Source of the DNA: a virus
Taxonomy: Duplodnaviria; Caudoviricetes
Virus record (IMG/VR): IMGVR_UViG_3300002168_000002
Coordinates: 1 to 64,000 of that record
Length of the DNA stretch: 64,000 nucleotides
Reading direction: 5' to 3' (one strand)
In this document: piece after piece, positions 588 through 49,275 of the stretch
Position numbering within the stretch: position 1 is the stretch's first letter
Layout of the letters: the number at the start of each line of letters is the position of its first letter
The notes under the pieces: model-generated
The model's database searches: none
The model's input: only the letters and a program-made list of their open reading frames with translations
Told to the model about the DNA's origin: nothing
Program-made: the position numbers and the translations under genes

Positions 588-1334
588 CTAATTGTCGGAT
601 TTTCTATTTATTCTATCCCATTCTCTTTGTTGTTCTCTTCTAATCTCTTTCCAGCACTCCCTACAATACATCTTTCTATTAGACGTAAGTTTTATTGGTG
701 CGCTACATTGTTTGCAATAATTGTATTTTTCTGGTTCGGATAAAGCTAAATAGTAATAAATTAAGTTTCTATAATTACCAATTTTAATTACTACCTTTCC
801 TTCTTCTTTTATATTTACAACATAATAATCTTTGTTTCTATATTGCTTCATACTAAGCATACCAGATTGAGTTAATAGAAAAATATTATCCCAAAACGCT
901 TTATTGTATAACTTTGTTTTTGCTAAATCCATTAAATCTTTATTAGTAATCCTAAAACTTTTTGCCCCACGGAACTTCCACACTACTAATAAAACAAACA
1001 TCATTTTTCTTTGTTCAATAGTTTCTAGCTGATTAATTAACTCTATCTCTTTATCAAATATTTCTACAATTTTATCTGTAACTAATTCATATTTCATTCC
1101 TACATTCATTGCTCTTTTTATTTTACTCTCTAATATCTTGCTATTATATAGATATTGAAATTTATCCATAAGTTTATTTAATTTTTTTTTAATTTCTTTT
1201 TCATTTAAACCTTTATATTTCCAGTATTTAACCAAAATTATATTATCGCCAGTTATGTATTTTTCATTTTTATAACCATTAGCAATAATATCTTCCGCAT
1301 ATTTTTTTTCATCAAATATTATCAATTTCAACAC
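588..1334 (-). CDS. hypothetical protein with C-terminal CxxC/CxxC zinc ribbon, coupled to the phage RNAP
   Basis: 248 aa; overlaps the RNAP stop; CKQC...CREC. Confidence 0.75.
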   Translation of the reverse strand: MLKLIIFDEKKYAEDIIANGYKNEKYITGDNIILVKYWKYKGLNEKEIKKKLNKLMDKFQYLYNSKILESKIKRAMNVGMKYELVTDKIVEIFDKEIELINQLETIEQRKMMFVLLVVWKFRGAKSFRITNKDLMDLAKTKLYNKAFWDNIFLLTQSGMLSMKQYRNKDYYVVNIKEEGKVVIKIGNYRNLIYYYLALSEPEKYNYCKQCSAPIKLTSNRKMYCRECWKEIRREQQREWDRINRKSDN

Positions 1335-4116
1335 CCTTTAATTCATAATATTTATCAAGATATTTAATTCCATTTTTACTATTAGATTCTACTGGAAAAT
1401 AAGCTATTTTATATTTGCGTTTTAAATTATCTACAATTTCTTTACCACAAATACTCCACATAATTCCTTTAGATTTTCTCTTAAAATAATTATACATAAT
1501 ATAAATCACATAGTTACATAATTCATATTTATTAAAGCAAATAGCAAATAATTCATTTTCAATTTCTTTGAATAAAATAGAGTATTCTTCGTCTATATTT
1601 TCTTCGATATCTTCATAGTAATCTTCATAATTTTCTAATGTATCTATTTCATTAGCATTAAGTTCATAAACATAATGATATTTTTTTAATACTTTTAATA
1701 TATCATTAAACATATTGCTATTTGTATCAATAACTATATCATCATTCATTAAAATACGATAATCAAATTCATATTTTTGTTTATAAAATTTTAAATCAAA
1801 ATCTATATCTTCTACATACCAACATAATTGATTCATTATAGATTTATTTACTAAAACAGGCATATATTTAAAATAGTTATTTAAAAATCTTTTTTCTTCT
1901 TTAGTTTTATTTTTCTTCTTAAATAATTCATGTAATTTACATCCGAACATAGCTCTACATATTCTTCCTGAACTTTCCTTATGTTCTTTATATTTTTTCA
2001 TTAATATTGGATAAATATAACACATAAAATAACTTTTCTTTTTCCCAGATAATCTATTTATAAACATCTTTCTTTGTTTTTCTTTACTAGAATCATTTTT
2101 CCAATTTATCTTTTCTATTCCATACCAATAAGAGGGAGGAGATATGTATAAATTTCCTTTACCTGCATCAATAGCAGATCCCTGATGAAATCTAAGTAAA
2201 TTTATTCTATAAGTTAATTCTTTATATTCTTCACTATTTTTAGAAAAACTATCCCTCAAACATATAAATGTGGTGGCGAGATTAGTAATAAAACCTATTT
2301 TTGTATTAAAACTTCTTGTATCCATAATAACTAAATTATTATAAGTTAAATTTTGTTCTTTTGTCATTGATGGTTTATATGTAATTGGTTTTAAGCTTCT
2401 ATCTACCGATTCCAGAATATAAGGATTATCTGTTGTCATTAATAAATCTCCATCTACATCACCATCTGATGCCCTCATAAGTGTTGTATCCCAACCGTTA
2501 AGAATAACTCCACTTGTAATTGTAGAATACCAATCGTTACATTTTTCATCAGAATAAACTTGAAGGACATTGTTCTCATGCGGAGAAACTAAAGGACTTC
2601 TAAATAATGCAACTTCTTTTGTGTCCTTATCAACCCATCGTTTTTGCCACAACTGTCCCTCCTTTAATAATCCTTTTGGAGTTTGTCCAAAAATATATTC
2701 ACAATATAAATATGGGTCTACCATAGCAAACTCATACGAGCCCTCTACTAAAAGTTTACCTATTTTAATTTGGTTAATCTTTTTTTGTATTGATCTATAA
2801 ATCCTATCTCTCACATATGAGTCTTTCAAAATATCTTCGCAATACATTAATGCTTTTACCATATCTATACTGGCATGATTTTCTATTTCTTTAATATCTT
2901 TATCTACTTCATGGCAACCAAGCAAATAGAGCAATACATAAATCCTTTCACCCAAACAAACATCTTTAATCCAGTCTATAGAAAAATCAGCAAGCTTCTT
3001 AATTTTTTCAGGAGTAAAAAAATTTGATTGTATATATTGATAATTTAATGCCGTTAAATTATTGTCTTTCTTTTTGTTTACCCTACTGCAACCCCAAATA
3101 TGCCCGTATTTTTCATGGTACTTTAAATACTCTTCCCATGAATCATACTTCTTCCACATCTTAAATTGTGATACGGAAAGAAGAACGTCAATATCGTCAA
3201 TATGCTTTTCGTTTCCCCACACATCTTTTATGTATTCCTTTTTAGCAACTTCTCTTGCATATCTCTTCCAATCAAAAACTACACAAAGACCCTTTATCCA
3301 GGCACTACGGATAATATAAGCAGATGGAGAATAATCGCTAATACCTAAATCCTCATTCCAGAGTTTTGCCATTTCCGTAGAAACCAAACCACTACCATCA
3401 AATACGTTTTGTTTAACGTCTATTGTACGTCTTTCAATATACCTTTCACCTTTATCATCAACATCAATCCATTCAACTTCCTGATCTGGAAGCACACATT
3501 CATAATCAGGAATTATACAAACTCTTGGAGTTCTGATGTAATTGGTTGAAGATGAATAAAGTGAAAAGTATGCTGAAAACTTGGATAGGTTTATTTTACC
3601 TATTCTCTTTTTAGTTAGACCACACATCATTATTTCTTCTAACGCATCATACAACTTTTCATTTACAAATAAAACCGTATTACGACGAAGTTGACCTGCT
3701 CCCGCACATAATCTTTTAAATGTAATCCCGTTTACTTCAAATAAATTCTTAGCAATATGTATGTAATCTTTTTTACTTGTGTTGGCATGGACAGATATTA
3801 AATCTGGAATGAAAAGAATACCATCAATTTGTTTTTGATATTGATAAATTTTTTTGCTATTCTCTAAAGATTTTTGTAAAGATTTTAAATTATTTCGATC
3901 TCTAATAATTTGTTCTAATTTATATTTTTGTTTTTCAAAATCAATCTGTTTTATATCTCTAATAAACTTTAATAACTGGTTATCTCCAATACTTACAACC
4001 CAACCTCTTTTTTTTGCTTCGTTAAGAGATATATTTATCTTTAAATTATTTTCAAGAATCGTATTGACATTAAGTTTTAGTATGTAAAATAAATCCATTT
4101 TTTTAGCCAATATCAA
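1312..4116 (-). CDS. yonO: YonO-like single-subunit RNA polymerase (two-barrel, eukaryotic RdRP-like)
   Basis: 934 aa; catalytic DxDGD motif (ASDGDVDGD), FRSP upstream, FDGSG, IGFITN, QGSAIDAGKG. Confidence 0.88.
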   Translation of the reverse strand: MILAKKMDLFYILKLNVNTILENNLKINISLNEAKKRGWVVSIGDNQLLKFIRDIKQIDFEKQKYKLEQIIRDRNNLKSLQKSLENSKKIYQYQKQIDGILFIPDLISVHANTSKKDYIHIAKNLFEVNGITFKRLCAGAGQLRRNTVLFVNEKLYDALEEIMMCGLTKKRIGKINLSKFSAYFSLYSSSTNYIRTPRVCIIPDYECVLPDQEVEWIDVDDKGERYIERRTIDVKQNVFDGSGLVSTEMAKLWNEDLGISDYSPSAYIIRSAWIKGLCVVFDWKRYAREVAKKEYIKDVWGNEKHIDDIDVLLSVSQFKMWKKYDSWEEYLKYHEKYGHIWGCSRVNKKKDNNLTALNYQYIQSNFFTPEKIKKLADFSIDWIKDVCLGERIYVLLYLLGCHEVDKDIKEIENHASIDMVKALMYCEDILKDSYVRDRIYRSIQKKINQIKIGKLLVEGSYEFAMVDPYLYCEYIFGQTPKGLLKEGQLWQKRWVDKDTKEVALFRSPLVSPHENNVLQVYSDEKCNDWYSTITSGVILNGWDTTLMRASDGDVDGDLLMTTDNPYILESVDRSLKPITYKPSMTKEQNLTYNNLVIMDTRSFNTKIGFITNLATTFICLRDSFSKNSEEYKELTYRINLLRFHQGSAIDAGKGNLYISPPSYWYGIEKINWKNDSSKEKQRKMFINRLSGKKKSYFMCYIYPILMKKYKEHKESSGRICRAMFGCKLHELFKKKNKTKEEKRFLNNYFKYMPVLVNKSIMNQLCWYVEDIDFDLKFYKQKYEFDYRILMNDDIVIDTNSNMFNDILKVLKKYHYVYELNANEIDTLENYEDYYEDIEENIDEEYSILFKEIENELFAICFNKYELCNYVIYIMYNYFKRKSKGIMWSICGKEIVDNLKRKYKIAYFPVESNSKNGIKYLDKYYELKGVEIDNI

Positions 4117-6877: not shown

Positions 6878-7714
6878 CTAGCAAAAACAAGCTTCTTTCA
6901 TATTCAATTTTTCCCGCATAGCGTCTCTCGTAGGATGTGTATAAACTAGCACAGTATTTAAATTACTATGCCCCAACTGTTCCTGTAATTGCCTTATATT
7001 TAAAATACCTTTTTCCAAAGCGTTAGTAGCAAATAAATGTCGTAAACTATGGGGGGTTATATCGCTACTATATTTATTAAATACACTTTCTATTGCCCTT
7101 GGCACAAGTTTTTCGCCTTTATTGCTAACAAAAAGATATTCAGATATACCGGCATATTTATATTTATCTCTATGATTTTTTAAATATTCCTCAATCGCAT
7201 TAATTGCAGGTTGATTTACAGTTATTTCACGTTGCTTGCTACCTTTTCCTCTAGAAACAATAATTTCTCCTCTGGTTAAATTTTTTAAGTCCTTTAATTT
7301 AATTGATAGTGCTTCGCTAATTCTTAAGCCAGTATTAGCAATAAGTACAACTATAGCATAATTACGAAAAGGTTCATTGCGTTTGATTTTATTGATAAAT
7401 TGCTTGAGGTCTTTTTTGGTTATAGTAGTAGGAGAAGAAAAAGATTTTTGAATAGAAATATAGTCTTGTGATTTAATTATATTACCAACTCCAAGAAAGT
7501 TACTATATTGTTTTAAAGAAGATAACGTACGGTTTATAGTTTTAGCATTAATATTTTTAGATTCTAACTGAGACTTATAAGACAGTACATTTTTCCTGTT
7601 AAATTCACCAAAACATACAAAAAAGTTTTTTAAATCATTGGTATAATTTTTAATTGTGTTGTCAGACTTTCCTTCATCTTTGAGATAATTGATAAAATCC
7701 TGCATTGTGAACAC
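6878..7714 (-). CDS. tyrosine recombinase (XerC/D-like)
   Basis: SAM-like N-terminus; TGLRISE, GKGSKQR, HSLRH, LGHS, catalytic Tyr in VYTH. Confidence 0.92.
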   Translation of the reverse strand: MFTMQDFINYLKDEGKSDNTIKNYTNDLKNFFVCFGEFNRKNVLSYKSQLESKNINAKTINRTLSSLKQYSNFLGVGNIIKSQDYISIQKSFSSPTTITKKDLKQFINKIKRNEPFRNYAIVVLIANTGLRISEALSIKLKDLKNLTRGEIIVSRGKGSKQREITVNQPAINAIEEYLKNHRDKYKYAGISEYLFVSNKGEKLVPRAIESVFNKYSSDITPHSLRHLFATNALEKGILNIRQLQEQLGHSNLNTVLVYTHPTRDAMREKLNMKEACFC

Positions 7715-7736
7715 TCCTTATAAGATTGATAATATA

Positions 7737-7765
7737 ATTATACGATATAATTTAGAATTTGTCAA
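7737..7765 (-). promoter_or_regulatory. sigmaA promoter of the recombinase
   Basis: TTGACA-N17-TATAAT. Confidence 0.75.
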
Positions 7766-8474
7766 GCACTTCTTTTATATCATAAACTTTAAACTCCAGT
7801 CCATACTTATTTTCCACAATAATTTTATTTCTAACCGTCGTGATCCTATGAGTAAGGATTAAAACTTCAGGGAATCTATCAGCTATTTTATACCAATCTT
7901 TTGTTGTATATAGCTCATTAGCATATAACTGATTATATTTTTTAATCTTATCAAAAGCATTATTGGACAAATCAGTTTCAATAAATATAAATCTATATTT
8001 ATTAGTAAAAGGATTCTTTATAGTGACAAATCCATCAGAACGTAAAATGCCGTAATCGTCCTCAACGGAAAATCCAACAATCTGTTCAAATTTGTCTAAG
8101 AGATAAAGTTTAATAAAAATATATCCCCAATTGGTCATTATTCTATGTTCAACAAATTTGAGTTTCTTATCTATATAATAAACGTAAGGCGAATCTTTAA
8201 TAACTTTAACCTTTTTTCTTTTAACCAAAGACTTCATTCTTCTTTGAACAATCCTGTACCCTGAAGTTTGGTGCAATGCTATTAAAGCATAAATCTGTTT
8301 AGTGTTCAAGACACCAAAATAATCAATATACTCAATTATAGTATTATCTCGGAGGAAGCATTTTTTTTGGTTGTTCAAGGACGACTTCTCGTCTCCCATA
8401 CACACCACCTTCCTCCAACAAATTATTAATCTTTTCCAATTTAACATACATAGTTTGAACTTCAGCCTCAACAT
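7752..8474 (-). CDS. replication-relaxation (Replic_Relax) family protein; true start probably near 8399
   Basis: RD...LNTKQI, EH, LRSDG, FIETD, KIKKY, FP motifs; directly downstream of FtsK. Confidence 0.75.
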   Translation of the reverse strand: MLRLKFKLCMLNWKRLIICWRKVVCMGDEKSSLNNQKKCFLRDNTIIEYIDYFGVLNTKQIYALIALHQTSGYRIVQRRMKSLVKRKKVKVIKDSPYVYYIDKKLKFVEHRIMTNWGYIFIKLYLLDKFEQIVGFSVEDDYGILRSDGFVTIKNPFTNKYRFIFIETDLSNNAFDKIKKYNQLYANELYTTKDWYKIADRFPEVLILTHRITTVRNKIIVENKYGLEFKVYDIKEVLDKF

Positions 8475-9537
8475 CCCATTGAAATATACATCTGCCTTGT
8501 ATTTTTGGTAAATCTAAACCCCTGGTATTGTTTAATATCATTTGTGAATCATCCCCACTACGCACATTAAAACATATCCTTGCATCCATAAGAGATCTAA
8601 GCTCCGTAAAGTTACCAGACCTGAAAGTTTTAGAAGAAGGTTTTTGAGTAGCAATAATAGTAATAAATCCAAAACCTCCCCCAAGTCTGGGGATTCTATT
8701 GAGAAGATATTGAATATCTTTATTCTGAATTTCTGTAACTTCATCAGCAAATACAATAATAAAAGGAGGGCGTATAGTAGTTGGCATATCATGAATTTTA
8801 ACATATTTACCCCTAATTAATTTTTTTCTTCTATCTAATTCATGATTCAATTTTTGAAGAACAAACATAGTTTCATCATCATTAGTAGCGAGAATACCAT
8901 ATTTATTCAAATACATGGCATATTCAGATTCTTTATAGTCAATACCAACTACTATACAACTATCATTTCTGGCAAGCAGTAAAGAAGTAATTATATTATG
9001 AATCATATTGGACTTGCCACTTCTAGGAATACCGCCTATGAGAATAGAATACATTCTGGCTAAATCTTTAACAATTAATTCTTTAGTAGAATAACCAATA
9101 GGAATCGGCAGAAGCATATCGCCATATTCACCATAATTAAAACGGTATGGGTAATTAGATTCTAACCTTTTAGAAAACACTTCCAGAGTAAAAGAATTGC
9201 CTCTCCTATTAATAATAACTTCACCATTTATGGCATCCTTAAAATACATTTCTTTTTCTTTAAAATCCCTGTAAGAGATTACTCCAGGCGGTAAGTGGAT
9301 GACAAAAACAAATTCAGTATTTTCCTTATTTCGCTCAACTTTAACTATTAGAGGTTTTAATTCATAATCACTCCACAAATTATCAATAACGTACTTAACT
9401 ATATTGGGGATTTTATTCTTGTTAGGAATAGTAAAATTTGTAAAGGGTAATGGAATATCATCTCTAAGTTTTATGAGTTGGGATAATGATTTAATTAAAT
9501 CACTATAGTCTTCTTTCTTTTTAGGCAACAAAATCAC
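8344..9537 (-). CDS. FtsK/SpoIIIE-family ATPase
   Basis: GIPRSGKS Walker A, IDYK, ELDRR, FADEV Walker B, ATQKP, GR. Confidence 0.88.
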   Translation of the reverse strand: MILLPKKKEDYSDLIKSLSQLIKLRDDIPLPFTNFTIPNKNKIPNIVKYVIDNLWSDYELKPLIVKVERNKENTEFVFVIHLPPGVISYRDFKEKEMYFKDAINGEVIINRRGNSFTLEVFSKRLESNYPYRFNYGEYGDMLLPIPIGYSTKELIVKDLARMYSILIGGIPRSGKSNMIHNIITSLLLARNDSCIVVGIDYKESEYAMYLNKYGILATNDDETMFVLQKLNHELDRRKKLIRGKYVKIHDMPTTIRPPFIIVFADEVTEIQNKDIQYLLNRIPRLGGGFGFITIIATQKPSSKTFRSGNFTELRSLMDARICFNVRSGDDSQMILNNTRGLDLPKIQGRCIFQWDVEAEVQTMYVKLEKINNLLEEGGVYGRREVVLEQPKKMLPPR

Positions 9538-9540
9538 CCT

Positions 9541-9744
9541 CTATTTAGGAATAGAATTAAGAACATTTATTGCTGTTTGAATACCCCTGATAATTAAAGT
9601 GCCAATTGATATAAAAACAGTAACCGCCACAGCTAAATCTATTATTGGCTTATATCTGGCTTGGTTAAACCATTCTAACATCATTTTAGCAACAAACCCC
9701 GTAGCCACAGCTCCAATAATAGTCCAGAGTAAAGGTTGAGACAT
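9541..9744 (-). CDS. small two-TM membrane protein (SpoIIIAC-like size and topology)
   Basis: 67 aa, two hydrophobic stretches. Confidence 0.65.
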   Translation of the reverse strand: MSQPLLWTIIGAVATGFVAKMMLEWFNQARYKPIIDLAVAVTVFISIGTLIIRGIQTAINVLNSIPK

Positions 9745-9758
9745 TTTTATATACCCCC

Positions 9759-10169
9759 TTAATTTCCAAACAATTTAAATTTAGAAATTCTATCTAACGC
9801 ATCGGTAAACTTAATAAGAATTGCCCATAAATTAATACCAAAAATAACCAATATTGATATTCCGTTAAGATAAGCAACTTTTTTAAGCAGAGAACCTACT
9901 TGAGAATCAAAGAATGATACGAACATACTGAGAACATAAAGAGTTAAGCAGGAATAAATAAGCTCTTTTAAAGTTTGGTCAAAATCATCTCCCGATTGGC
10001 ATCCAGTAGATAATACTAATAATGAGATTAATAATATAATAATAACCCTATTTCTTTTTGATATATTTGCTGTAAAAGTCTTTGAGTTTTTCATTGACGG
10101 TATTATTTTTCTTGTGGAATTTGTTAATGCTGTCAAATATTTTGTCCAGATACCTTTGATCAACTTCAC
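9759..10169 (-). CDS. membrane protein / possible lipoprotein
   Basis: hydrophobic stretch ending LSTGC plus two further TM segments. Confidence 0.65.
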   Translation of the reverse strand: MKLIKGIWTKYLTALTNSTRKIIPSMKNSKTFTANISKRNRVIIILLISLLVLSTGCQSGDDFDQTLKELIYSCLTLYVLSMFVSFFDSQVGSLLKKVAYLNGISILVIFGINLWAILIKFTDALDRISKFKLFGN

Positions 10170-10557
10170 TTATTTCACCACCATTCATGTTTCGCTCATA
10201 GATAAGTGTAGTACCTTTAGTTTTATCATCTTTAAAAATAATTTTAATTTTACCGGGTTTTGGGTTCTCAGGAGTGGTATATTCAGTAACCAATTCAGAT
10301 TCAGTAAGATTATCTTTATTCTTTTGTTTTTTATACTCTTTTTGTTTAGTAATAATATTTTCATTTTCCATTTCAAATATAATATAAGCTTCCTTATTAT
10401 CTATTTTGGCAATATAAACTCTTTCCTTATCCCATGACTTAATTTCTACACCAGAATTGTTTACCAGGAATGGGTTATATAGAGAAAGCGTAAAAATTGC
10501 TAAAATTATTATTTGAGTAGTAACTCTTACAACAATAACCAACGGCATAAAACTCAC
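10048..10557 (-). CDS. membrane-anchored hypothetical protein
   Basis: N-terminal hydrophobic segment, 169 aa. Confidence 0.6.
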   Translation of the reverse strand: MSFMPLVIVVRVTTQIIILAIFTLSLYNPFLVNNSGVEIKSWDKERVYIAKIDNKEAYIIFEMENENIITKQKEYKKQKNKDNLTESELVTEYTTPENPKPGKIKIIFKDDKTKGTTLIYERNMNGGEISEVDQRYLDKIFDSINKFHKKNNTVNEKLKDFYSKYIKKK

Positions 10558-10790
10558 TCTCCTTTGAGGATATTATTAATTGAATTTGAAAAATCATTTA
10601 CATTTTCTTGGTGATGGGACAGATATTCTTTAATTAACCTTATAACATCTTCTTTAGTTAGGACTGTAAAGTTTTTAATATCTCTCCTTATTAACTCATT
10701 AATATAATAAGATTTGTTTGGTTGTTTAGATAAATGGGGAAGAACATCTTGTGCAATATAAAAGTTTTTACGTTTGTTGCCGGAAGACAT
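10554..10790 (-). CDS. ParR-like ribbon-helix-helix adaptor
   Basis: RKNFYI...NKSYYINELIRRD RHH pattern; overlaps the end of parM. Confidence 0.7.
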   Translation of the reverse strand: MSSGNKRKNFYIAQDVLPHLSKQPNKSYYINELIRRDIKNFTVLTKEDVIRLIKEYLSHHQENVNDFSNSINNILKGE

Positions 10791-11691
10791 TATTGCTCAC
10801 CACCTTTAAACCTAAAACATTATCCCATAGAGGATTGTTAGAAAAAGTTGAGTTGGGGAAATGCTGGAGTAAATAGTCTTTTAGCAGTAAAGCACCACCT
10901 CCTGTAAACATAATTTCCAGGTTTTCGATGTTCCAATTGTTGAGTTTCAAATGATTAATGATTTCCAAGATGTGAAAATTGATAATGTCAGAGATTATTG
11001 GCTTAAACTTGGACAATCCATTATTAATTATATTGGGAATTTCATACTCTTGGAAGTTAGTAGAAAATCTAGAGTTTAAAGATTTGCGAATTTGATTGTA
11101 GAGAATAATTGAACCTAAGTTTTCAGTGAATTTAGTGTTGGGGACGGGGTTAAAATTGTCTAAAATAATACCCTGACAGGTTAAGCCTCCAATATCAATA
11201 AGAGCTTTAACGGAGTTTTGGAAAAAATGAGGATTAACGTATGCTACAGGGACAGTTTGGGGAAATGCTATACATTTATTAATGTGAAAAATAAAGCGTT
11301 GGTTGTTAACCAAAATGTTAATGAAATCAGTTGTGGAGATAAATTTTTCAAATTCTGTTTTAGTTTTAGTGTTGTAGATGTTTAGAGGATAGTTAATTAC
11401 CAAGTTAATGTGGTTTGGAGTATTAGGTTGGATTATTTTAGAAATAAGGGTATAGGCAAGAATACGGTAGGCTTCATTACGTGTTTTATCTAATTCTAAG
11501 GAGTGTTGAGATGCAGATTCGCCTATTATGGCTTTAAGATTGTTGTGTTGGTACTGGATGGTATCAGGGTTCAGAGATGGAAGATATTCAGAAGTTATTT
11601 CAACTTTGGAGCGTATGCGTTGTTTGGTTGAAAGGCAGGCATAATAGTAGCCTAAATCAATTTGTGTGTTAATTGACATAAAAGAACACAT
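10768..11691 (-). CDS. parM: ParM/StbA actin-like ATPase
   Basis: IDLGY, FPQ, IDIGGLT, TGGGA actin-fold motifs. Confidence 0.85.
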   Translation of the reverse strand: MCSFMSINTQIDLGYYYACLSTKQRIRSKVEITSEYLPSLNPDTIQYQHNNLKAIIGESASQHSLELDKTRNEAYRILAYTLISKIIQPNTPNHINLVINYPLNIYNTKTKTEFEKFISTTDFINILVNNQRFIFHINKCIAFPQTVPVAYVNPHFFQNSVKALIDIGGLTCQGIILDNFNPVPNTKFTENLGSIILYNQIRKSLNSRFSTNFQEYEIPNIINNGLSKFKPIISDIINFHILEIINHLKLNNWNIENLEIMFTGGGALLLKDYLLQHFPNSTFSNNPLWDNVLGLKVVSNNVFRQQT

Positions 11692-13126: not shown

Positions 13127-13200
13127 TTTAATTCTTGCTAGAGGGGAATATTAAATAGTAATGATTATTATTTAATATTCCCTTTTGTGGAAGAATTAAA
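13127..13200 (+). promoter_or_regulatory. stem-internal loop-stem hairpin, putative RNase III processing site (copy 1 of 5)
   Basis: TTTAATTCTT/AAGAATTAAA lower stem, GCT/GTGG internal loop, long upper stem. Confidence 0.5.
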
Positions 13201-13550: not shown

Positions 13551-13703
13551 CCTTTAGTACATGTTCAAAATGAAGAACTGTATAATATTTAATCCTTGCT
13601 AGAAGGGATAATTAATTAATAATAATTATCCCTTTTATGGAAGGATTAAATTACTAAAATAAAAATGTTTCACGTGAAACATAAAAAAAAAGGAGAGTAA
13701 AAA

Positions 13704-14861: not shown

Positions 14862-14947
14862 AACAGGTTATTCCTTCTTGCTATGGCGTACTCAAGTACG
14901 CCATATATTGAAGGAATAAACTAAAAAAAGAAAGAAGGAATGCGTTA

Positions 14948-15640
14948 ATGTGTATCATTATTTACAAACCTAAAGGTAAAGATTTGTCTAGAGATCATCT
15001 GATAACATCTTTTGAAAACAATTTTGATGGAGCAGGTTTTATGTATCAAGAAAAAGGGAAGGTTATTATTGATAAGGGATTTATGTATATCGAAGAACTT
15101 TTCCACGCATTGAAAAAACTCGATGCAAAAAATAAGGATATTGTTCTTCATTTTAGATTTGCAACTCATGGAGAGATATCACCGGAGAATTGCCATCCTT
15201 TCCCAATAACAGATAAAGAAAAAGAATTAACATTGCTTGAAACAGTATGTGAAGCAGGAATAGCGCATAATGGCATTATTCCTTTTTGTAATGACAAAAA
15301 AAGTCATTTATCGGACACGCAAATATTTATAAAAAAATATCTGTCTAAACTCAATAACAGTTTAAACAATCCTGCTTTGCATGAATTAATATTGCAAAGT
15401 ACCGAATCAAAATTCGCCATAATGACAAATAATAATGTTTATCTTTTAGGAGACTTTATAAAGGAAAAAGGAATATTTTATAGTAACAGTAGTTACAAAA
15501 AATTAAAATTTTATAGTTTAAAAAAATCTTTTCTGCAATGCGAATGCTGCGGAAAATATATAACGGAAAAAGAAGAAGCTTTTTATAATTATGATATTGT
15601 AATTTGTGAGTATTGTAATAATCTTTTTGCAGGTATTTAA
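14948..15640 (+). CDS. class II (Ntn) glutamine amidotransferase
   Basis: N-terminal Cys2, DGAG, HFRFATHG, NCHPF, HNG, SDT. Confidence 0.88.
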   Translation: MCIIIYKPKGKDLSRDHLITSFENNFDGAGFMYQEKGKVIIDKGFMYIEELFHALKKLDAKNKDIVLHFRFATHGEISPENCHPFPITDKEKELTLLETVCEAGIAHNGIIPFCNDKKSHLSDTQIFIKKYLSKLNNSLNNPALHELILQSTESKFAIMTNNNVYLLGDFIKEKGIFYSNSSYKKLKFYSLKKSFLQCECCGKYITEKEEAFYNYDIVICEYCNNLFAGI

Positions 15641-15713
15641 TTCTTGCAATATAGGCAGGATATTCCTGTCTATCATGGAAGGATTAAATTTAAAAAAAAA
15701 GGAGATGGAAGGA

Positions 15714-16349
15714 ATGAAAAGTAACAAAGAACAATTATTACTTACCAGTGCCGACAATATGGAAATAACTGCTAACAGGTGGATTGAACATTATAACAAC
15801 AACAAAGGATTATATAATTACATTTTTAACCAAAATGTAATTATAGCAAAAAATGGAAAATATACAATTTCCCAGGAACTGGAAGCAATAACAACCACAA
15901 AAAATTACATGATTAGCTTCCAGGAACTGGAAGACTTGAAGCAGGAGTCAATCCTGCTTATGATGGAATTTATTTCCAGGAGAGGGACGATACTTTACAG
16001 ATATAAATATACTATCTGGAAACAATGCGTACAAAGGGCCATTGTAAAGCACGTCAGACAACAAAGGAGATTCTTTTTACAACCTGAAAACCTTGATCAA
16101 AAAATAGCCTGGGATAAAGGCGAACGTGTGCAGGTCGATCCTGGCGAATATTCTCAAATTGACTTTAAAATTGACGTTAAAAACCTTGATACACTAAACA
16201 AGAAAGAGAAGCAAATAATAATGTTTCTTTTTCAGAAATACAAGCAAAAGGAAATTGCCGATATGTTAAAAATATCGTCGCAAATGATAAGCAAATATAT
16301 TCGTCAGATAAGGAAAAAATTATCTGCTGCTGAATTAATGAACGCATAA
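15714..16349 (+). CDS. phage sigma70-family factor (ECF/TcdR-like size)
   Basis: region 2-like EDLKQE...RQQRR and region 4 LNKKEKQII...KQKEIADMLKISSQMISKYIRQIRKKL; RBS supports start at 15714. Confidence 0.75.
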   Translation: MKSNKEQLLLTSADNMEITANRWIEHYNNNKGLYNYIFNQNVIIAKNGKYTISQELEAITTTKNYMISFQELEDLKQESILLMMEFISRRGTILYRYKYTIWKQCVQRAIVKHVRQQRRFFLQPENLDQKIAWDKGERVQVDPGEYSQIDFKIDVKNLDTLNKKEKQIIMFLFQKYKQKEIADMLKISSQMISKYIRQIRKKLSAAELMNA

Positions 16350-17432: not shown

Positions 17433-17699
17433 GTGTTAACAATGACAGAGATCAAAAAGAAAGAATTATTAAAATTAGCTAAAGGACATTGGCAGGAAAA
17501 TATACTATTTGACTTATTAACACAAAAAACAATAGTAAGTCCAATAGGAAAACAATTAAAAGCAAGAAACTATATAGGAAGATATGAAGAGTCTTTTTAT
17601 AACCTTCTTTCTAGACTTAACAGTGCAGGGATAACAGTTCAGCGAACTCCTGGCCCTAGAGGAGGTGAATACTCTGCAACATATAAAATTATTTTTTAA
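17433..17699 (+). CDS. hypothetical protein
   Basis: RBS, class-1 promoter and terminator flank it. Confidence 0.75.
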   Translation: MLTMTEIKKKELLKLAKGHWQENILFDLLTQKTIVSPIGKQLKARNYIGRYEESFYNLLSRLNSAGITVQRTPGPRGGEYSATYKIIF

Positions 17700-17889
17700 T
17701 TTAATTAACAACCGGAAAGGGTTAAAGTCCTTTTCCGGTATATTTTTTTTGTACAAGAATTATTAAAATTAAAAAAAGGAGTGAAAAAAATGACAAGAAA
17801 AAAAATTGAAAAAATATCTTTCTAAACAAGAAAGAAGATTATTAAAAATTGAAGGGTTTATTTTTTACCCTTTGAAAAGTTAGTATTAT

Positions 17890-18162
17890 ATGACTAAAAT
17901 AAAAAAGGAGTTGTTCATAATGACAAAAAGAATGACAAAAAGAAGTTTGTTAGAATCTTTTATCAATGGCGCAACAAAGGGGAAGGGATCAAATTTAATT
18001 ATCAAAGACAATGAATTAATTAACTATAACACAGTTATCGCCAAAAGGGAAGGAAATAAAATTCTCCTGAATAACAGAAAATACAGCAAAACTACAACCG
18101 TCAATCAAAACATTATCAGACAAATAACTCCTAAAAATATACTTCAAGAAATACCATTTTAA
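17890..18162 (+). CDS. hypothetical protein (likely start 17920)
   Basis: RBS AAGGAG; class-1 promoter upstream. Confidence 0.75.
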   Translation: MTKIKKELFIMTKRMTKRSLLESFINGATKGKGSNLIIKDNELINYNTVIAKREGNKILLNNRKYSKTTTVNQNIIRQITPKNILQEIPF

Positions 18163-18175
18163 TTTAAGGTAACAA

Positions 18176-18214
18176 TAGCAGGAAGAGGATAAAACCTTTT
18201 CCTGCTAATTTTTT
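18176..18214 (+). terminator. GCAGG/CCTGC-family terminator, identical to 19571-19602
   Basis: TAGCAGGAAGAGGATAAAACCTTTTCCTGCTA occurs twice. Confidence 0.85.
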
Positions 18215-18257
18215 ATTTGTTGGTTGATTATATAACAATAAAAAGGAGTGCTTTTCA

Positions 18258-18626
18258 ATGAAAACTAAGAAAGACTTACAAGAATTAATTATCAAAAAAG
18301 GGGGATTAATTTTTAGCGAAGGGACATTAAGTCTAGTACATCTTTTACCTGCTGCTTATGATTTAATTGTTGAATTTAATCTTAATAGCAATCTTGAAAA
18401 AGACATTAAAAAAGTATTCTCCAATACAGACACAGAACCGACATATCATAACCAATATTATGGTTATATTACCATACCAGAAGACAAAGAAGAAGAAGCA
18501 TCATATATCTTCAATGAAGATATATTTAATTTGTTTAATGATATTGCGCCAGAGGGATTTTATTTTGGAAATCTAGAAGGCGACGGTGCTTGCTTTGGTT
18601 GGTTTATGATAGAAGAAGAAGAATAA
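18258..18626 (+). CDS. hypothetical acidic protein
   Basis: 122 aa, RBS. Confidence 0.8.
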   Translation: MKTKKDLQELIIKKGGLIFSEGTLSLVHLLPAAYDLIVEFNLNSNLEKDIKKVFSNTDTEPTYHNQYYGYITIPEDKEEEASYIFNEDIFNLFNDIAPEGFYFGNLEGDGACFGWFMIEEEE

Positions 18627-18775
18627 GTGTATTAATATAAAAAATAGGGCTAGAATAGCCGAATTGCCTTTACTTCAATGGGTATAGTTATTCATTGCTT
18701 CAGCGCATTATTAATATAATAGTGCGCTGTATGGAGTGAATAACACTTCAATAATATAATAGGAGGTTGTAAAAA

Positions 18776-19069
18776 ATGGAAAAGGTAAAAATTGAATATG
18801 AGAAATTAACGGAAATTGAACTACTCAAAATATGGAAAGATGACGAGTGTGAATTTGATGAATTTTTATACAAAACAGGACTAACAGCAAAGGAAGTTAA
18901 TAAAGCAATAGAAAATGAGGATGCAATAAATATATTAAAACAAATAATTCAATATGCTAGAGGTTGCGGTCTGGAATTTTGCTATCAATGTAACTGTTTT
19001 GTAGACGATAACGCATATATTTATAGTGCGCAACAGTGCATTGAATGTGCAATCGGAAATGGTGTTTAG
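18776..19069 (+). CDS. hypothetical protein with C-terminal CxxC pair
   Basis: 97 aa, RBS AGGAGG. Confidence 0.75.
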   Translation: MEKVKIEYEKLTEIELLKIWKDDECEFDEFLYKTGLTAKEVNKAIENEDAINILKQIIQYARGCGLEFCYQCNCFVDDNAYIYSAQQCIECAIGNGV

Positions 19070-19071
19070 TA

Positions 19072-19143
19072 AGCCGTCCAGGCGGCTATAAACAGTGCAT
19101 TAAACCTGGAGCGTTTACGGGGAATAATCCCCGTAAGGTTGCA
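19072..19143 (+). ncRNA. pistol self-cleaving ribozyme
   Basis: P1 AGCCG/CGGCT; loop TCCAGG pairs with CCTGGA (pseudoknot); UAAA linker; P2 TGCA/TGCA; UUAAA; GCG; P3 TTTACGGGGA/TCCCCGTAAG; G-U cleavage site at 19138/19139. Confidence 0.88.
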
Positions 19144-19178
19144 AAAAAATTAATATAAATTAATTAGGAGGTTTTAAA

Positions 19179-19439
19179 ATGTTAAAATGCAGGTTTAAAA
19201 ATCAGTTTGATTTTACTATTAACACAGACGCAAAAATTATTCAATGGGGAAATATAGAGGGAGAATTAAAGCAGTTTTTTGACGGTATAACAGGTGAAAT
19301 ATCATCAATTGCAGGGGTAAAAGGTTACAGCGAATACCTAAAAGCATATAGTTATATTACTCCAAATATTTACAAAAAAGACATAACAGAATGTAACGAC
19401 TGGGACAAGCTAAACCAATTATTTACAGTATTAATATAA
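19179..19439 (+). CDS. hypothetical protein directly downstream of the ribozyme
   Basis: 86 aa, RBS GGAGG. Confidence 0.75.
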   Translation: MLKCRFKNQFDFTINTDAKIIQWGNIEGELKQFFDGITGEISSIAGVKGYSEYLKAYSYITPNIYKKDITECNDWDKLNQLFTVLI

Positions 19440-19502
19440 AAAAAGGAGGTTTTAAAATGGCAAGTTCTGTTAGCTATGTTATGTTAGCTAACAAAAAATA
19501 CA

Positions 19503-19552
19503 GGAGGTAAATTCCTTTGAAACATATATTAGTAAACATTTACAAGCTTGGT
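19503..19552 (+). repeat. 50-bp duplicate of the RBS and start of the 20691 gene (gene remnant)
   Basis: GGAGGTAAATTCCTTTGAAACATATATTAGTAAACATTTACAAGCTTGGT also occurs at about 20678. Confidence 0.9.
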
Positions 19553-19671
19553 AATGGTAACAGATAAAAATAGCAGGAAGAGGATAAAACCTTTTCCTGC
19601 TATTTTTTTTATTTAACAGGTTGATTTTTATACCTGTTAGAAGTTAGTATTATATATAACGATTAAAGGAG

Positions 19672-19923
19672 ATGTTAATAATGGCAAATATAGGGAATAT
19701 CAAAAAAGAGAATAACGGCAAATATCCTTCTTTTGTTTGGCCTGGCGGATATCCTTTATTTTATTTAGACGAAGAAAACAATTGTTTGTGTCCTGATTGT
19801 GCAAATAAAGAAGATGAGTATAGCAGTCCTATTGTAGCATATGATATAAACTGGGAAGATGATTTACTTTATTGTGATGATTGTGGTAAAAGAATTGAAT
19901 CAGCATATGGAGAAAATGAATAA
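19672..19923 (+). CDS. small zinc-binding phage protein (WPGGYP motif)
   Basis: CPDC...CDDC. Confidence 0.8.
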   Translation: MLIMANIGNIKKENNGKYPSFVWPGGYPLFYLDEENNCLCPDCANKEDEYSSPIVAYDINWEDDLLYCDDCGKRIESAYGENE

Positions 19924-20157
19924 CAGAAAATCTTACTGCCTGTTGAGTTCTATACTTAACAGGCAAATTTTTTTATTTGAAGGTTTATTTTTTAATCCTT
20001 CAAAAGTTAGTATTATATATAACAGAAAAGGAGTTGTTTTTAATGAAAACAAATTAAAGGCTATAATTGAAGAATCAGAAACAGGAAGGTTTTATAACTT
20101 TCCTGCTAATTTTTTATTTATAAGTTAGTAAAAAAAAACAGAAAGGATGTTTTATTT

Positions 20158-20505
20158 ATGTTTTTAAGAGCTAACAGGAATAATTTAAGGAAATATGCAA
20201 AAGAAATTTTAGGAGTAGAATATACTCCCGAAAAAGAAAAAGAATTAATTAATATTTGTACAAAAGATTCTTATAAAAACTATCGTGGTGGTTATGAGCA
20301 TAAGTCTTTTGCTATCACAAAATACATGAAAAAAATTGATAAAATTATTGGAACTTTTGGAGTAGAAAATTTATTTCCCGAAATCCCTGATCTTTTCTAT
20401 TGCAATGCGGGAGATACTTACAGCACAACAATTTTACATTATAAAGATAAATTATATATAGGTTGTTGGGGCGATATTGCAGAAAAATATTTAAAAAATA
20501 TTTAG
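20158..20505 (+). CDS. hypothetical phage protein
   Basis: 115 aa, RBS. Confidence 0.8.
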   Translation: MFLRANRNNLRKYAKEILGVEYTPEKEKELINICTKDSYKNYRGGYEHKSFAITKYMKKIDKIIGTFGVENLFPEIPDLFYCNAGDTYSTTILHYKDKLYIGCWGDIAEKYLKNI

Positions 20506-20517
20506 CTTCATAGCTAC

Positions 20518-20544
20518 TTTACATTTTAACCTTCTGTATTACTA
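20518..20544 (+). promoter_or_regulatory. phage promoter class 2 (TTTACR-N13-YATTACTA), first of 6 copies
   Basis: other copies at 20936, 21648, 23785, 35461, 36429, all with a 13-nt spacer. Confidence 0.75.
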
Positions 20545-21040
20545 ACATAATATAGGAGGTTTTCTGCTATTTAAACAGTAGCTAACAAAATTTTTTAATC
20601 CTTCAAAAGTTAGTATTATATATAATTGCCCGGCAGCCTTATATCCCGGGCAAAAACAAATATAAAATTAATGAAAGGAGGTAAATTCCTTTGAAACATA
20701 TATTAGTAAACATTTACAAGCTTGGTTTGACAAATACCAAGCTTGAAAATGGAACAAAAATAAAAAATTTAAAAGTAAGTGTAGGAAATTTCCCCAACAA
20801 GTGTTGGGGAAAAATAGAGGCGGAAGTTAATGGCAGGGTTGTGAAATATCAGTATGTGTTACCTTGCCAAAATTGCCGTGGTTGCGACTAACTATATCTG
20901 TGAAAAAAGAGATTGTGAAAATTGCAATGAATAGCTTTACGTTCCCTTTCCCTGCATTACTATATAGTAGTGCGTAGTTTACTTTTTAGCAAGTTGTAAG
21001 TTAGTATTAAATAACAGAAAATAACAAAGGAGGAATAAAA

Positions 21041-21535
21041 ATGCAAGGGAAATTTTTTGGACATCAACAAATGGGTCGTCCTTGTCCCCACTGCGGGACG
21101 CCATTAATAATGGCAGATTATGACGATAGTTGTTATGTTTTCCCCGGCAGGTTACATAAGCCCTGCCAGTGGGGTCAAAACGGAAAGGTGGTCGTCTCTG
21201 TTTACGCAAGGAACCCAATTTGGGTTCATGTCATTGTGCGGGGAGTCAAGAAAAAGGATGGCATCACTTCAATAGATGCCACCCTCGACAAATTTAATTT
21301 TCATATTGAGTCCCCGTCCCCCAAAGAGGAATTTAAAAAGCATTTGAAGGGCTGGGAGCGTTGCCCTGATTGTGGGGCAATGTTAGAGTTTGACATCGAG
21401 AGAAAATTAGGCAATGTAACTACATATGTAGGATATTGCCCAGAAAGAAATACCAGGGAAAAAATAGAAAGATTACCTGGATGTAAAAAGTGTAACGATA
21501 CTATCCACGGCGGGCATTTTATGGATTTAGATTAG
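21041..21535 (+). CDS. zinc-ribbon hypothetical protein, GC-richer than its surroundings
   Basis: CPHC, CPDC, CKKC; RBS AGGAGG. Confidence 0.75.
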   Translation: MQGKFFGHQQMGRPCPHCGTPLIMADYDDSCYVFPGRLHKPCQWGQNGKVVVSVYARNPIWVHVIVRGVKKKDGITSIDATLDKFNFHIESPSPKEEFKKHLKGWERCPDCGAMLEFDIERKLGNVTTYVGYCPERNTREKIERLPGCKKCNDTIHGGHFMDLD

Positions 21536-27427: not shown

Positions 27428-28528
27428 ATGGAGAGATTTAACAAAACAGTAACGGCAAAGAGGATCTCTCGTGATGTAACGGAGGACAAAATTAATCTTA
27501 ACTGTATCATTCAAAGAGGTGAAGCATGGAATAATTATCAGAAGTCTTTACTTATTCATTCTATGCTTAGTGATTTTCCTGTACCGCCTCTTTTTGCACA
27601 GGAACAGGAAGGAGATTCAATACTTCATGTGCTTGATGGCAAACAGCGAATTTTAACTATTAGCCAATATTTAACAGATGGATTTATCCTGCATGACAAT
27701 ACGCCAAAATTTAATGGGCAAAAAATTGCAGGATTAAAATTTTCCGAACTAGAAGAAGAAATGCAAGATAAAATCAAGGATTTTAATTTACTAATATATT
27801 ATTTTAGGAATATGTCAGAGCAAGAACGTGATGAAATGTTTTTGCGCTTGAATAACGGAAAATCTCTTTCTAGAATTGAGTTAACCAGAGTAGAAGCAGG
27901 ACAGGAATTTATGGAATACGTTAGAGAACTTGCACAAAATTCTTTCTTTCAAAATTGCAATTTTACGGCATCTGCATTAAACAAGTTTGCAGATGAAGAA
28001 GTAATTTTACATTGTATAAATATGTTACTTTATGATGGTATGGATGGTTTGTCAGGAAAGGTTATTTCTGACATGGTAAAAGATTTAAAAGTAAATGGAT
28101 TAACAGAAGTAGACAAGAAAAATTTAACAGATACAGTTGAATTTCTGAATATAGCATTCACGGAAAAAGAAAAATTTTTAAAGAAAGTTAACATTCCTAT
28201 TATTTTCTATGTTGCTATGCAGGTAAAGGATGATATACCTGCAACAGAATTTTACTTGAAGGTTAGGGAGTTTTTCAAATCTCCAACAGAAGAATATAAA
28301 GAAGCAGCACAGACAGCTAGCGCAAAGGCTGAAAATGTGCAGACAAGAATTGAAGAACTTTCTAACTATATAGAGCAGTTTTTAACAAGCGAACAAGAAC
28401 AAGAAGAAGAACCAGAAGAAGAATTTCAAGAGGAAAAACAAGAAGAAAATTTTATTGATGAAGAACAGGATGCAATACATGAACTTGAACAACAATACGG
28501 CACAGAGTTTGCACAGCTAGGAATCTGA
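27428..28528 (+). CDS. DUF262 (ParB/GmrSD-like) protein with acidic tail
   Basis: IQR...W, LIHS, VLDGKQR, FLRLNNG. Confidence 0.85.
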   Translation: MERFNKTVTAKRISRDVTEDKINLNCIIQRGEAWNNYQKSLLIHSMLSDFPVPPLFAQEQEGDSILHVLDGKQRILTISQYLTDGFILHDNTPKFNGQKIAGLKFSELEEEMQDKIKDFNLLIYYFRNMSEQERDEMFLRLNNGKSLSRIELTRVEAGQEFMEYVRELAQNSFFQNCNFTASALNKFADEEVILHCINMLLYDGMDGLSGKVISDMVKDLKVNGLTEVDKKNLTDTVEFLNIAFTEKEKFLKKVNIPIIFYVAMQVKDDIPATEFYLKVREFFKSPTEEYKEAAQTASAKAENVQTRIEELSNYIEQFLTSEQEQEEEPEEEFQEEKQEENFIDEEQDAIHELEQQYGTEFAQLGI

Positions 28529-43393: not shown

Positions 43394-44329
43394 ATGGCGC
43401 ACATGGTAGAAACCATGTTTAGTTATCGGCAAGTACCTTGGCATGGACTAGGGAGGATTGTGGAAGAAGCACCAGATAGTAAAACAGCGATAAAATTGGC
43501 TGAGTTAGATTGGACAGTAGAGCAAGAACAAATACAATTAGTAAAAAATGGTGTGATAATTAAGGATTTTTATGCAAATGTTAGGAGTGCAGATGATTCG
43601 GTATTAGGAATAGTAAGTGGTAAATATAAAATTGTTCAAAATTATGAAGCGTTTGAGTTTACAGATGTTTTGTTGGGAGAAGGGACTAAGTACGAAGCGG
43701 CAGGTAGTTTATGTAATGGTAAAAAAGTTTGGCTATTAGCAAAATTAGAGGATCGTTTTAAACTTGTTGGAGATGATACAGAAGTGTATCTTGGATTTTT
43801 TAATAACCATGATGGAAAAGGAAGCGTTAGAGCATTTATAACTCCTGTAAGGGTAGTATGTTGGAATACATTAAATATGGCTTTAAAAAATGCAAGCAGA
43901 AGTTGGTCAACAATACACGCTGGAAGTATGCAAGAAAAATTAAAGGAGGCACAAAGAACATTAGAATTAACACATATTTATATGAACAAACTTTCTGAGA
44001 CAGCAGAAATACTTGCAGATAAGAAAATTACAAATAATGATGTAACAGAATTTACTGAAATGCTTTTCCCTATTGGCGATGATATGTCTGACAGGAAGAA
44101 AAACAATATAATTGATATTAGACAAGAATTACTTTATCGTTATAATAAAGCACCAGACTTGAAAAAATTTAACGGAACAGCGTGGGGATTAGTTGGAGCA
44201 GTATCAGATTTAGTTAGTCATTCTGCACCTAGAAGGAACACAAAAACATTTGCTGAAAATCGTTTTGATAAAGTAGTGACAGGGCATCCGATTTTTGATA
44301 AAGCAACAGAATTACTTTTGGTGGCATAA
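43394..44329 (+). CDS. DUF932 / TIGR03299-like phage-plasmid protein
   Basis: VETMFS...PWHGLG, YKIVQN, NNHDG, PVRVVCWNTL, GTAWG. Confidence 0.85.
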   Translation: MAHMVETMFSYRQVPWHGLGRIVEEAPDSKTAIKLAELDWTVEQEQIQLVKNGVIIKDFYANVRSADDSVLGIVSGKYKIVQNYEAFEFTDVLLGEGTKYEAAGSLCNGKKVWLLAKLEDRFKLVGDDTEVYLGFFNNHDGKGSVRAFITPVRVVCWNTLNMALKNASRSWSTIHAGSMQEKLKEAQRTLELTHIYMNKLSETAEILADKKITNNDVTEFTEMLFPIGDDMSDRKKNNIIDIRQELLYRYNKAPDLKKFNGTAWGLVGAVSDLVSHSAPRRNTKTFAENRFDKVVTGHPIFDKATELLLVA

Positions 44330-47955: not shown

Positions 47956-49275
47956 ATGTTAAAAGAAAAACAAATTAAATTAAAAGAAAAACTTAAAAAT
48001 ATAATAGCGGAAGTAGGACATATTGTGGATATTAAACAAGAAATAGCAAATGAATTTCTTAGTAGAAATTTGCCAGCATATAGAGCTGCACAGGTTTTTA
48101 TGGGCAATGAATCACTAGATACTATTGGTGATTCTGAAGTTGATATTGGATTTTTATTTTTATTTTCTGTTGCCTTAAATAAAGCAGTAGAACAAAAAAC
48201 AAATCTAGGCATAAAAATAAATGTTGAAGATTATTTTACACAAATAGAAATTAAACAGTGGAGCAATTATAAAGAAGAAAAATTAAAAGATGATGTATAT
48301 CCTGTTATATTTGAAAATGTCCAACAAATTTCAGATCGAATTTGGCAAACCATTATAACAGCACAAGAGCTTGCAAAATTAGATGTTGAAAATTTGTTGC
48401 TATATAATTTTAAAACTCAACGATCTCCTAAAATAACTGTATCTGGTATAAAAATTGATTTTGATAAAAGAAAAATGATTGAGATTAAAAACAGAATATT
48501 AAATGGAGAACAATTTCCTGACCATATTAAGATAAATATCTTAAATAATTTTCAAGAAAAAATTCATTATGATCCTAAAAAACAAATCTTAACAATTGGC
48601 GAGGGTTCAACAATTAATATCTTTGACGGTTATCATAGAAAGGTAGCCAATTCCCTTGTTGTTGAAGAAAATCCCGAAATTAATTTTACTTGGGGACTTA
48701 TTATTACTAATCTATCTGAAAATGCAGCCAGGGATTATATGGTTCAGATTAATAAACAAAAACCAATTAAAAAGGAGCAAATAAAAGTATGGGATTTAAA
48801 CAAGAAGGAAAATCTTATTGTTAGTGTTATTGCTGATGATAAGATAAGCAAGCTTAATAAAGTAATGAAAGAACAAGATATAGAAATTAAATACGGTAGA
48901 GGACTAACTACAAAAAATATTATTGCAGAAGCCATAAAAGAAAATTATGTTTTGGACGATAATACTGATATAAGAGAGTTGGGTAGTTGGATTGTGACAT
49001 TTACTGATTATCTTTTTCATTTATATCCTAATGAATTTGTCGTTGGTAGAAATGAAAATTTTATGAACCATAAATATATTTTTTATGGGTATATTGCATT
49101 ATCCGCACAATTAAGAGGTAATAGTAATTGGAAAGAAGAAACTAAAAAAAAGATAGATAACATTAACTTTGATAAGAATAATATATTATGGAGAGATATT
49201 GGATTCACATCTAAAAAATTAAATAAAACATCACGTAATAAACTTTATAAGTTGTTTAGAAAGGAGGGTTTATAA
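47956..49275 (+). CDS. YopQ-like DndB/ParB-superfamily (DGxHR) protein
   Basis: YNFKTQR, IFDGYHR, QINKQKP; coupled to the MrpR-like gene. Confidence 0.7.
   Translation: MLKEKQIKLKEKLKNIIAEVGHIVDIKQEIANEFLSRNLPAYRAAQVFMGNESLDTIGDSEVDIGFLFLFSVALNKAVEQKTNLGIKINVEDYFTQIEIKQWSNYKEEKLKDDVYPVIFENVQQISDRIWQTIITAQELAKLDVENLLLYNFKTQRSPKITVSGIKIDFDKRKMIEIKNRILNGEQFPDHIKINILNNFQEKIHYDPKKQILTIGEGSTINIFDGYHRKVANSLVVEENPEINFTWGLIITNLSENAARDYMVQINKQKPIKKEQIKVWDLNKKENLIVSVIADDKISKLNKVMKEQDIEIKYGRGLTTKNIIAEAIKENYVLDDNTDIRELGSWIVTFTDYLFHLYPNEFVVGRNENFMNHKYIFYGYIALSAQLRGNSNWKEETKKKIDNINFDKNNILWRDIGFTSKKLNKTSRNKLYKLFRKEGL

Follow-up and report, generated by a model that had tools for sequence, protein, structure and literature searches.

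A pistol-class ribozyme motif with an altered active-site position, flanked by two small genes in a large SPbeta/c-st-like Firmicutes phage

Between two small co-directional genes of a phage lies a 72-nt element that raises three questions, namely whether it belongs to the pistol class of self-cleaving ribozymes, what a ribozyme would do at such a site, and whether this particular copy can be expected to cleave. To our knowledge, the biological role of pistol, as that of most bacterial self-cleaving ribozymes, is still not known. Weinberg et al. (2015) is reportedly the reference for the class, and the env25 structures 5K7C and 6UEY are taken here to represent the pistol ribozyme. The class was described by Harris et al. 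(2015), and its members sit near phage genes in Firmicutes (PMC4604425). The window, i.e., the whole stretch of 64,000 nucleotides that was analysed, belongs to an IMG/VR record of 108.6 kb with a GC content of 28% and an estimated completeness of 66%. This record encodes a 934-aa YonO-like single-subunit RNA polymerase (1312-4116, minus strand; Pfam RdRP PF05183, 3e-12), the best phage matches of which are a fecal phage (41.7%), Bacillus BUCT082, Clostridium c-st, and Enterocloster phages. The RNA polymerase, replication genes, a ribonucleotide reductase, a large serine recombinase, and the low GC content of the record indicate a large SPbeta/c-st-like Firmicutes phage. A plasmid-like segregation module was also found on the minus strand (6878-11691), consisting of a tyrosine recombinase, an FtsK/SpoIIIE-like ATPase, and an actin-like ParM/Alp protein. 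Possible defence or counter-defence cargo is encoded on the plus strand at 27428-28528, 43394-44329, and 47956-49275, as proteins carrying GmrSD N-terminal, DUF932, and DndB-like domains.

The assignment of the element to the pistol class, made in the original prediction, was borne out by a scan of the whole window with the Rfam models. Pistol (RF02679) matched 19072-19143 on the plus strand over its full length (model positions 1-68 of 68), scoring 61.1 bits where the gathering threshold is 34.5. This was the single above-threshold Rfam match of the window and the sole pistol of the 108.6-kb record; neither the window nor the remaining record yielded another ribozyme family at E≤1 when scanned by E-value. 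The 5-bp hairpin P1 (19072-19076/19083-19087), the pairs of which are invariant across six related copies, carries in its loop UCCAGG (19077-19082), the 5' strand of the pseudoknot, which forms six Watson-Crick pairs with CCUGGA (19105-19110) that are all kept in the relatives. The AAA linker (19090-19092), the 4-bp P2 (UGCA/UGCA, 19096-19099/19140-19143), the G40-C41-G42 core (19111-19113, columns invariant in an alignment of 20 viral pistols), and the P3 stem-loop (19114-19137; stem 19114-19122/19129-19137, 9-10 bp by folding, loop AAUAAU) follow on the plus strand, and the Rfam alignment places the predicted scissile G/U at 19138/19139, in a 2-nt junction between P3 and P2. All invariant columns of the 20 viral pistols were found in the window copy, as were the linker and core nucleotides A19-A21, U29, U30, A31, purine 32, A39, G40, C41, G42, and U43. 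By family, and as judged from its sequence, 19072-19143 is a genuine pistol-class ribozyme motif. The original prediction had further stated that every pistol element was present with full pairing. This was right for P1, the pseudoknot, the AAA linker, P2, the GCG core, P3, and the G-U cleavage site, but position 33 (19104) is an A instead of the near-invariant G, as seen from the Rfam alignment and the relatives, and mispairs with its partner C41 (19112). The predicted placement held as well, the ribozyme starting 2 nt past the stop codon of an ORF that ends at 19069 and the cut falling 40 nt before the next ATG (19179). Cleavage by pistols falls at the 2-nt P3/P2 junction (PMC4604425), so the 3' product would begin at 19139 with a 5'-OH.

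The upstream ORF (18776-19069, plus strand) encodes a 97-aa protein with a Cys-rich C-terminus, for which no relatives were found in viral contigs and which differs by one amino acid in a 99.1%-identical metagenome contig (L263). The downstream ORF (19179-19439, plus strand) encodes an 86-aa protein, with an 88% identical counterpart in a related contig (G001). Neither has a significant Pfam or PHROG family match. The two genes are connected by the ribozyme and an A/U-rich leader (19144-19178, plus strand) with the Shine-Dalgarno (SD) sequence AGGAGG at 19166-19171, which in an alignment of six copies is conserved with the ribozyme up to the ATG. No structure of the leader that would mask the SD sequence before cleavage was found, the leader folding no better than shuffled sequences (z = -0.25). 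A perfect 9-nt complement exists between 19100-19108, in the region of the 3' strand of the pseudoknot, and 19190-19198, covering codons 4-7 of the downstream ORF; it is fully Watson-Crick with A33, would contain a G-U pair with G33, and is missing from copies with a different downstream gene.

From 12 kb onward the genes of the window lie on the plus strand, and small ORFs are separated by terminator-like hairpins (13 versus 2.7 expected). Twelve copies of a 15-nt motif, AAGTTAGTATTATAT, lie on the plus strand between 16446 and 29081 of the window, versus 1.2 expected; each copy follows a terminator-like hairpin and a GGTTGATT box, and the motif likely represents a phage promoter class. A protein with a sigma-70 region 4 is encoded at 15606-16349. 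The motif copies at 17877 and 19641 enclose one multi-gene unit, with no further copy in between. This unit holds, in order, an ORF, a terminator-like hairpin (18176-18207, plus strand) with no full promoter motif after it, an ORF (18258-18626), a second hairpin (18687-18744), the 97-aa ORF, the pistol, the 86-aa ORF, and a closing terminator-like hairpin (19566-19607, plus strand), the next promoter motif being located at 19641-19655. The pistol is hence co-oriented with its flanking genes and inside a multi-gene unit bounded by terminator-like hairpins. That these genes are early ones is plausible from the layout of promoters and terminators.

The second hairpin of this unit, named in the original prediction as bracketing the 97-aa ORF together with the pistol, is real. 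It is a conserved stem-internal loop-stem structure on the plus strand (18687-18744; -30 kcal/mol, z = -7.2 to -7.6), which is kept in L263, in a further metagenome contig (L264), and in G001, each time followed by a small gene and then by a pistol or a pistol remnant. Four further hairpins of the same kind occur on the plus strand (13127-13200, 13588-13650, 14868-14919, and 15636-15688), the z values of all five ranging from -6 to -10. Their lower stems are related and their upper stems variable; they lack a U-tract, each precede a ribosome-binding site, and are candidate processing sites for an endonuclease of the RNase III type.

What is conserved around the ribozyme was seen from five metagenome contigs (L263-L267, e.g. 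Ga0265294_10154148), which carry near-identical pistol modules. Core nucleotides 1-44 are the same in the window and in all five contigs, except for position 33, and the similarity to the window spans the region from ribozyme nucleotide 1 to the ATG (BLAST block 19066-19181). The flanks vary among these relatives, with three types of upstream genes and four types of downstream genes, the flanking genes of L263 being the same as those of the window. The shared block shows that the ribozyme, the leader, and the SD sequence move together as one module. In P3 of L266, four pairs are altered on both sides, i.e., in a compensatory way, and in the alignment of the window copy with its five close relatives 149 of the 150 pair cells are standard, a count matched by no shuffled or slid control; the sole non-standard cell is A33-C41 of the window. 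The compensatory changes and the standard pairs point to selection on the ribozyme fold. The window region 17500-21500 had no megablast match in the phage collection, and a lineage-specific pistol pattern gave no matches in viral contigs and none in genome contigs.

A further relative, G001, shows the other side of this conservation. The end of another gene stands in place of the 5' 44 nt of its ribozyme, leaving only the 3' third. P3, the cleavage junction, and the leader, as well as 28 nt at the beginning of the downstream ORF, are still there at 97.8% identity; Rfam no longer detects a pistol in this remnant. At least one lineage can thus do without the ribozyme. In G001 (L119, 2560-3020), an unrelated gene has been inserted behind the remnant, and past it lies a complete copy of the start of the 86-aa ORF; this layout is the footprint of a cassette insertion via recombination at the conserved leader. 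A 51-nt exact repeat is also present in the window (19502-19552 and 20676-20726, plus strand), the copies of which are collapsed in L263, where window position 19552 is immediately continued by about 20676, a sign that the intervening 1.1-kb segment was deleted or inserted.

The same placement was found in other phages. A generic pistol pattern fetched 49 viral records, 38 of which contained pistols at the Rfam level, often two or three each, and many of the pistol-bearing records are proviruses of 60-220 kb. Across 31 viral loci, falling into nine sequence groups, a copy starting between -2 and +11 nt from the stop codon of an ORF on the same strand was present in eight groups and a copy followed by an SD-led start codon 25-60 nt past the cut in five, counts that are to be read as a pattern and not as a statistic because the loci are partly interrelated. 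This shows that a stop codon, a pistol, a short leader, and an SD-led start form the usual layout across several phage pistol lineages.

These observations together favour, somewhat more than they leave in doubt, a co-transcriptional, protein-free module for processing and insulating mRNA between cistrons, of which the window copy is possibly impaired by its G33A substitution. Protein-free mRNA processing between two genes, as originally proposed for this locus, is indeed the reading that best fits its context, given the co-orientation, the terminator-bounded unit, the conserved block, and the recurring layout. The RNA of the ancestral G33 form would fold during transcription and cut itself between G19138 and U19139, splitting a polycistronic transcript between two small co-directional genes. 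At its 3' end, the upstream cistron would retain the compactly folded ribozyme with a 2',3'-cyclic phosphate, and the downstream cistron would begin with a 5'-OH, a fixed 40-nt A/U-rich leader, and a strong SD sequence. The module would be portable and supply the gene that follows with a defined 5' end, irrespective of the upstream sequence. In Firmicutes, RNase J1 acts on 5'-OH ends and ribosomes bound near the 5' end protect the RNA, and effects of cleavage on mRNA stability may be expected from this general knowledge of RNA decay.

Whether the window copy itself would perform such cleavage depends on position 33, which is an A in the window and a G in the other 19 of the 20 aligned viral pistols; Rfam marks the pair 33-41 of the window copy as non-standard. 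G33 was present in 43 of 43 pseudoknot-validated pistols, of which the viral (34/34) and genomic (4/4) ones were pattern matches with a perfect 6-bp pseudoknot and the metagenome ones (5/5) were contigs with the same P1 and pseudoknot, returned by a scan with no constraint on positions 32 and 33. A scan of viral contigs directed at A33 gave at least 80 matches, and one pistol-like sequence was found among the matches listed, namely the second copy of another viral record (G037). This copy is degenerate, scoring 45.9 bits and combining A33 with an imperfect pseudoknot. The observations on G037 concern L073 8197-8271 and 11864-11919 (both minus strand) and include a sub-threshold type I hammerhead match near this copy (25.5 bits, gathering score 34). 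Among the validated pistols A33 is, on present alignments, private to the window copy. It costs 8.3 bits, since the G33 copy of L263, which is otherwise identical, scores 69.4 bits versus 61.1 bits for the window.

G33 pairs with C41, closing the three-way junction, the general acid is a hydrated Mg2+ held by the N7 of G33, and 7-deaza-G33 cuts the rate more than 1000-fold (PMC7027511, PMC6795133, PMC10946891). A literature search found no rate data for a G33A pistol. The general base of the pistol ribozyme is G40, which the window copy has; adenine retains N7 and loses O6 and the Watson-Crick pair with C41. As G33A abolishes the pair with C41 and removes the Mg2+-holding guanine, the copy may be slowed or dead. 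Its cleavage cannot be assumed, because the motif is not intact at G33, and we infer from the sequence that it probably cleaves much more slowly or not at all. An impaired copy, whether attenuated or dead, is more likely than a normal one, near-normal activity being conceivable in view of the N7 that adenine keeps.

If catalysis was killed altogether, the element would now be an inactivated relic, serving as a structured spacer or as a 3' stabiliser of the upstream mRNA and heading for decay of the type seen in G001. This is not the likely outcome, although it deserves more weight than any other alternative. It agrees with the absence of A33 from all 43 validated pistols, including those of the five close relatives, with the N7-Mg2+ contribution of G33 being the largest one known in catalysis (PMC10946891), with the loss of the ribozyme within the lineage, and with the company of A33 and an imperfect pseudoknot in the degenerate copy of G037. 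However, all other core nucleotides and helices of the window copy are intact and the catalytically relevant N7 is still offered by adenine. Moreover, A33 stands as a single substitution at an overall divergence of 0.9%, and signs of accumulated decay are absent.

It is improbable that A33 reflects an error of assembly or a minority variant and that the phage population carries a fully active G33 ribozyme. The record is a metagenome assembly, and the contig L263, identical to window 18662-19552 for 99.1% over 891 nt, has a G at this position. Yet, the eight differences between the two, including 19104, are all transitions, and the seven others are spread across coding and non-coding DNA, as is the case for real divergence.

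Similarly unlikely is that the block is kept mainly as a recombination linker or a translation leader at cassette junctions, with cleavage adding little to fitness. The connection of different gene pairs by the same block and the breakpoint inside the block of G001, accompanied by a duplicated start of the downstream ORF, are in line with this explanation. A pure linker, however, needs neither compensatory changes in P3 nor an invariant catalytic core. In addition, the same motif class occurs at the same type of site in unrelated phage lineages with differing leaders, which also speaks against a role as linker.

Extending the reading as an intercistronic processing module, the pistol, the fixed leader, and the SD sequence may tentatively be seen as a portable self-trimming 5'-UTR cassette, comparable to engineered insulators, that marks the points at which SPbeta/c-st-like phages exchange small early genes and that, together with the hairpin family, frees single-gene mRNAs. 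If this is true, the G33/A33 pair in phages that are 99% identical offers a ready-made test of the role of pistol cleavage. The locus leaves the knowledge of the pistol class as such unchanged, both the family and the setting being known ones. What it adds is a sharply bounded module, its use at points of gene exchange, and an active-site variant that occurs in nature alongside a wild-type twin. The notion of processing or insulation between cistrons can hence be tested with two short natural sequences, A33 and its G33 twin, and the A33 copy illustrates that a high Rfam score alone does not guarantee an active ribozyme.

The window also encodes a 730-aa protein (58236-60428, plus strand) with AAA_33 kinase, Metallophos, and RNA_lig_T4_1 (Rnl1-type ligase) domains, i.e., the architecture of bacterial Pnkp, which equips the phage with an end-healing kinase and phosphatase and a sealing ligase and probably repairs tRNA cut by host anticodon nucleases. 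The enzymology of T4 Pnkp/Rnl1 and bacterial Pnkp makes the end chemistry of ribozymes compatible with such enzymes in principle. The suggestion that this enzyme heals and seals the 2',3'-cyclic phosphate and 5'-OH ends left by the pistol, giving regulated re-ligation or circular RNAs, is nevertheless very improbable and was rejected, because the fusion gene lies 39 kb from the pistol, Pnkp/Rnl1-type fusions are usually read as tRNA repair against host anticodon nucleases, and no consistent co-occurrence was seen across the 38 other pistol-bearing viral records, 19 of which are at least 90% complete (Rnl1 domain 0/38, RtcB 0/38). An Rnl2-type ligase was present in 5 of these 38 records. These counts indicate that an RNA ligase of the phage is not a general requirement for pistol function.

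Compared with known systems, the window copy resembles the pistol class RF02679 in having P1, the 6-bp pseudoknot, P2, P3, and the 2-nt G-U junction, as well as the elements UAUAAA, UUA, purine 32, AGCGU, and GGU. Its setting is typical too, being intergenic, near phage genes, and in a low-GC Firmicutes background. Unlike the class, it has A33 and an A-C mismatch with C41, and the motif is known here from sequence. With the copies of L263-L267 it shares the cleavage junction and a 38-nt leader with an SD sequence, whereas these copies have G33 and vary among themselves in P3 and in their flanking genes. For the window pistol, layout and conservation point to intercistronic processing; we know of no natural pistol for which polycistronic processing has been proven. 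Processing of polycistronic mRNA has already been proposed for bacterial ribozymes such as hammerhead and twister (PMC6765202). The present locus is like these suggested cases in that its ribozyme has an intercistronic position and would provide the gene behind it with a fixed 5' leader independent of the upstream sequence. Among engineered systems, RiboJ is a ribozyme used as insulator. In the phages T7 and SP82/SPO1, hairpins between early genes are processed by RNase III. The hairpin at 18687-18744 and its four paralogues are like these hairpins, with long stems, an internal loop, no U-tract, and a location between early genes. Their putative processing by an RNase III-type enzyme would depend on a protein, unlike that by the pistol.
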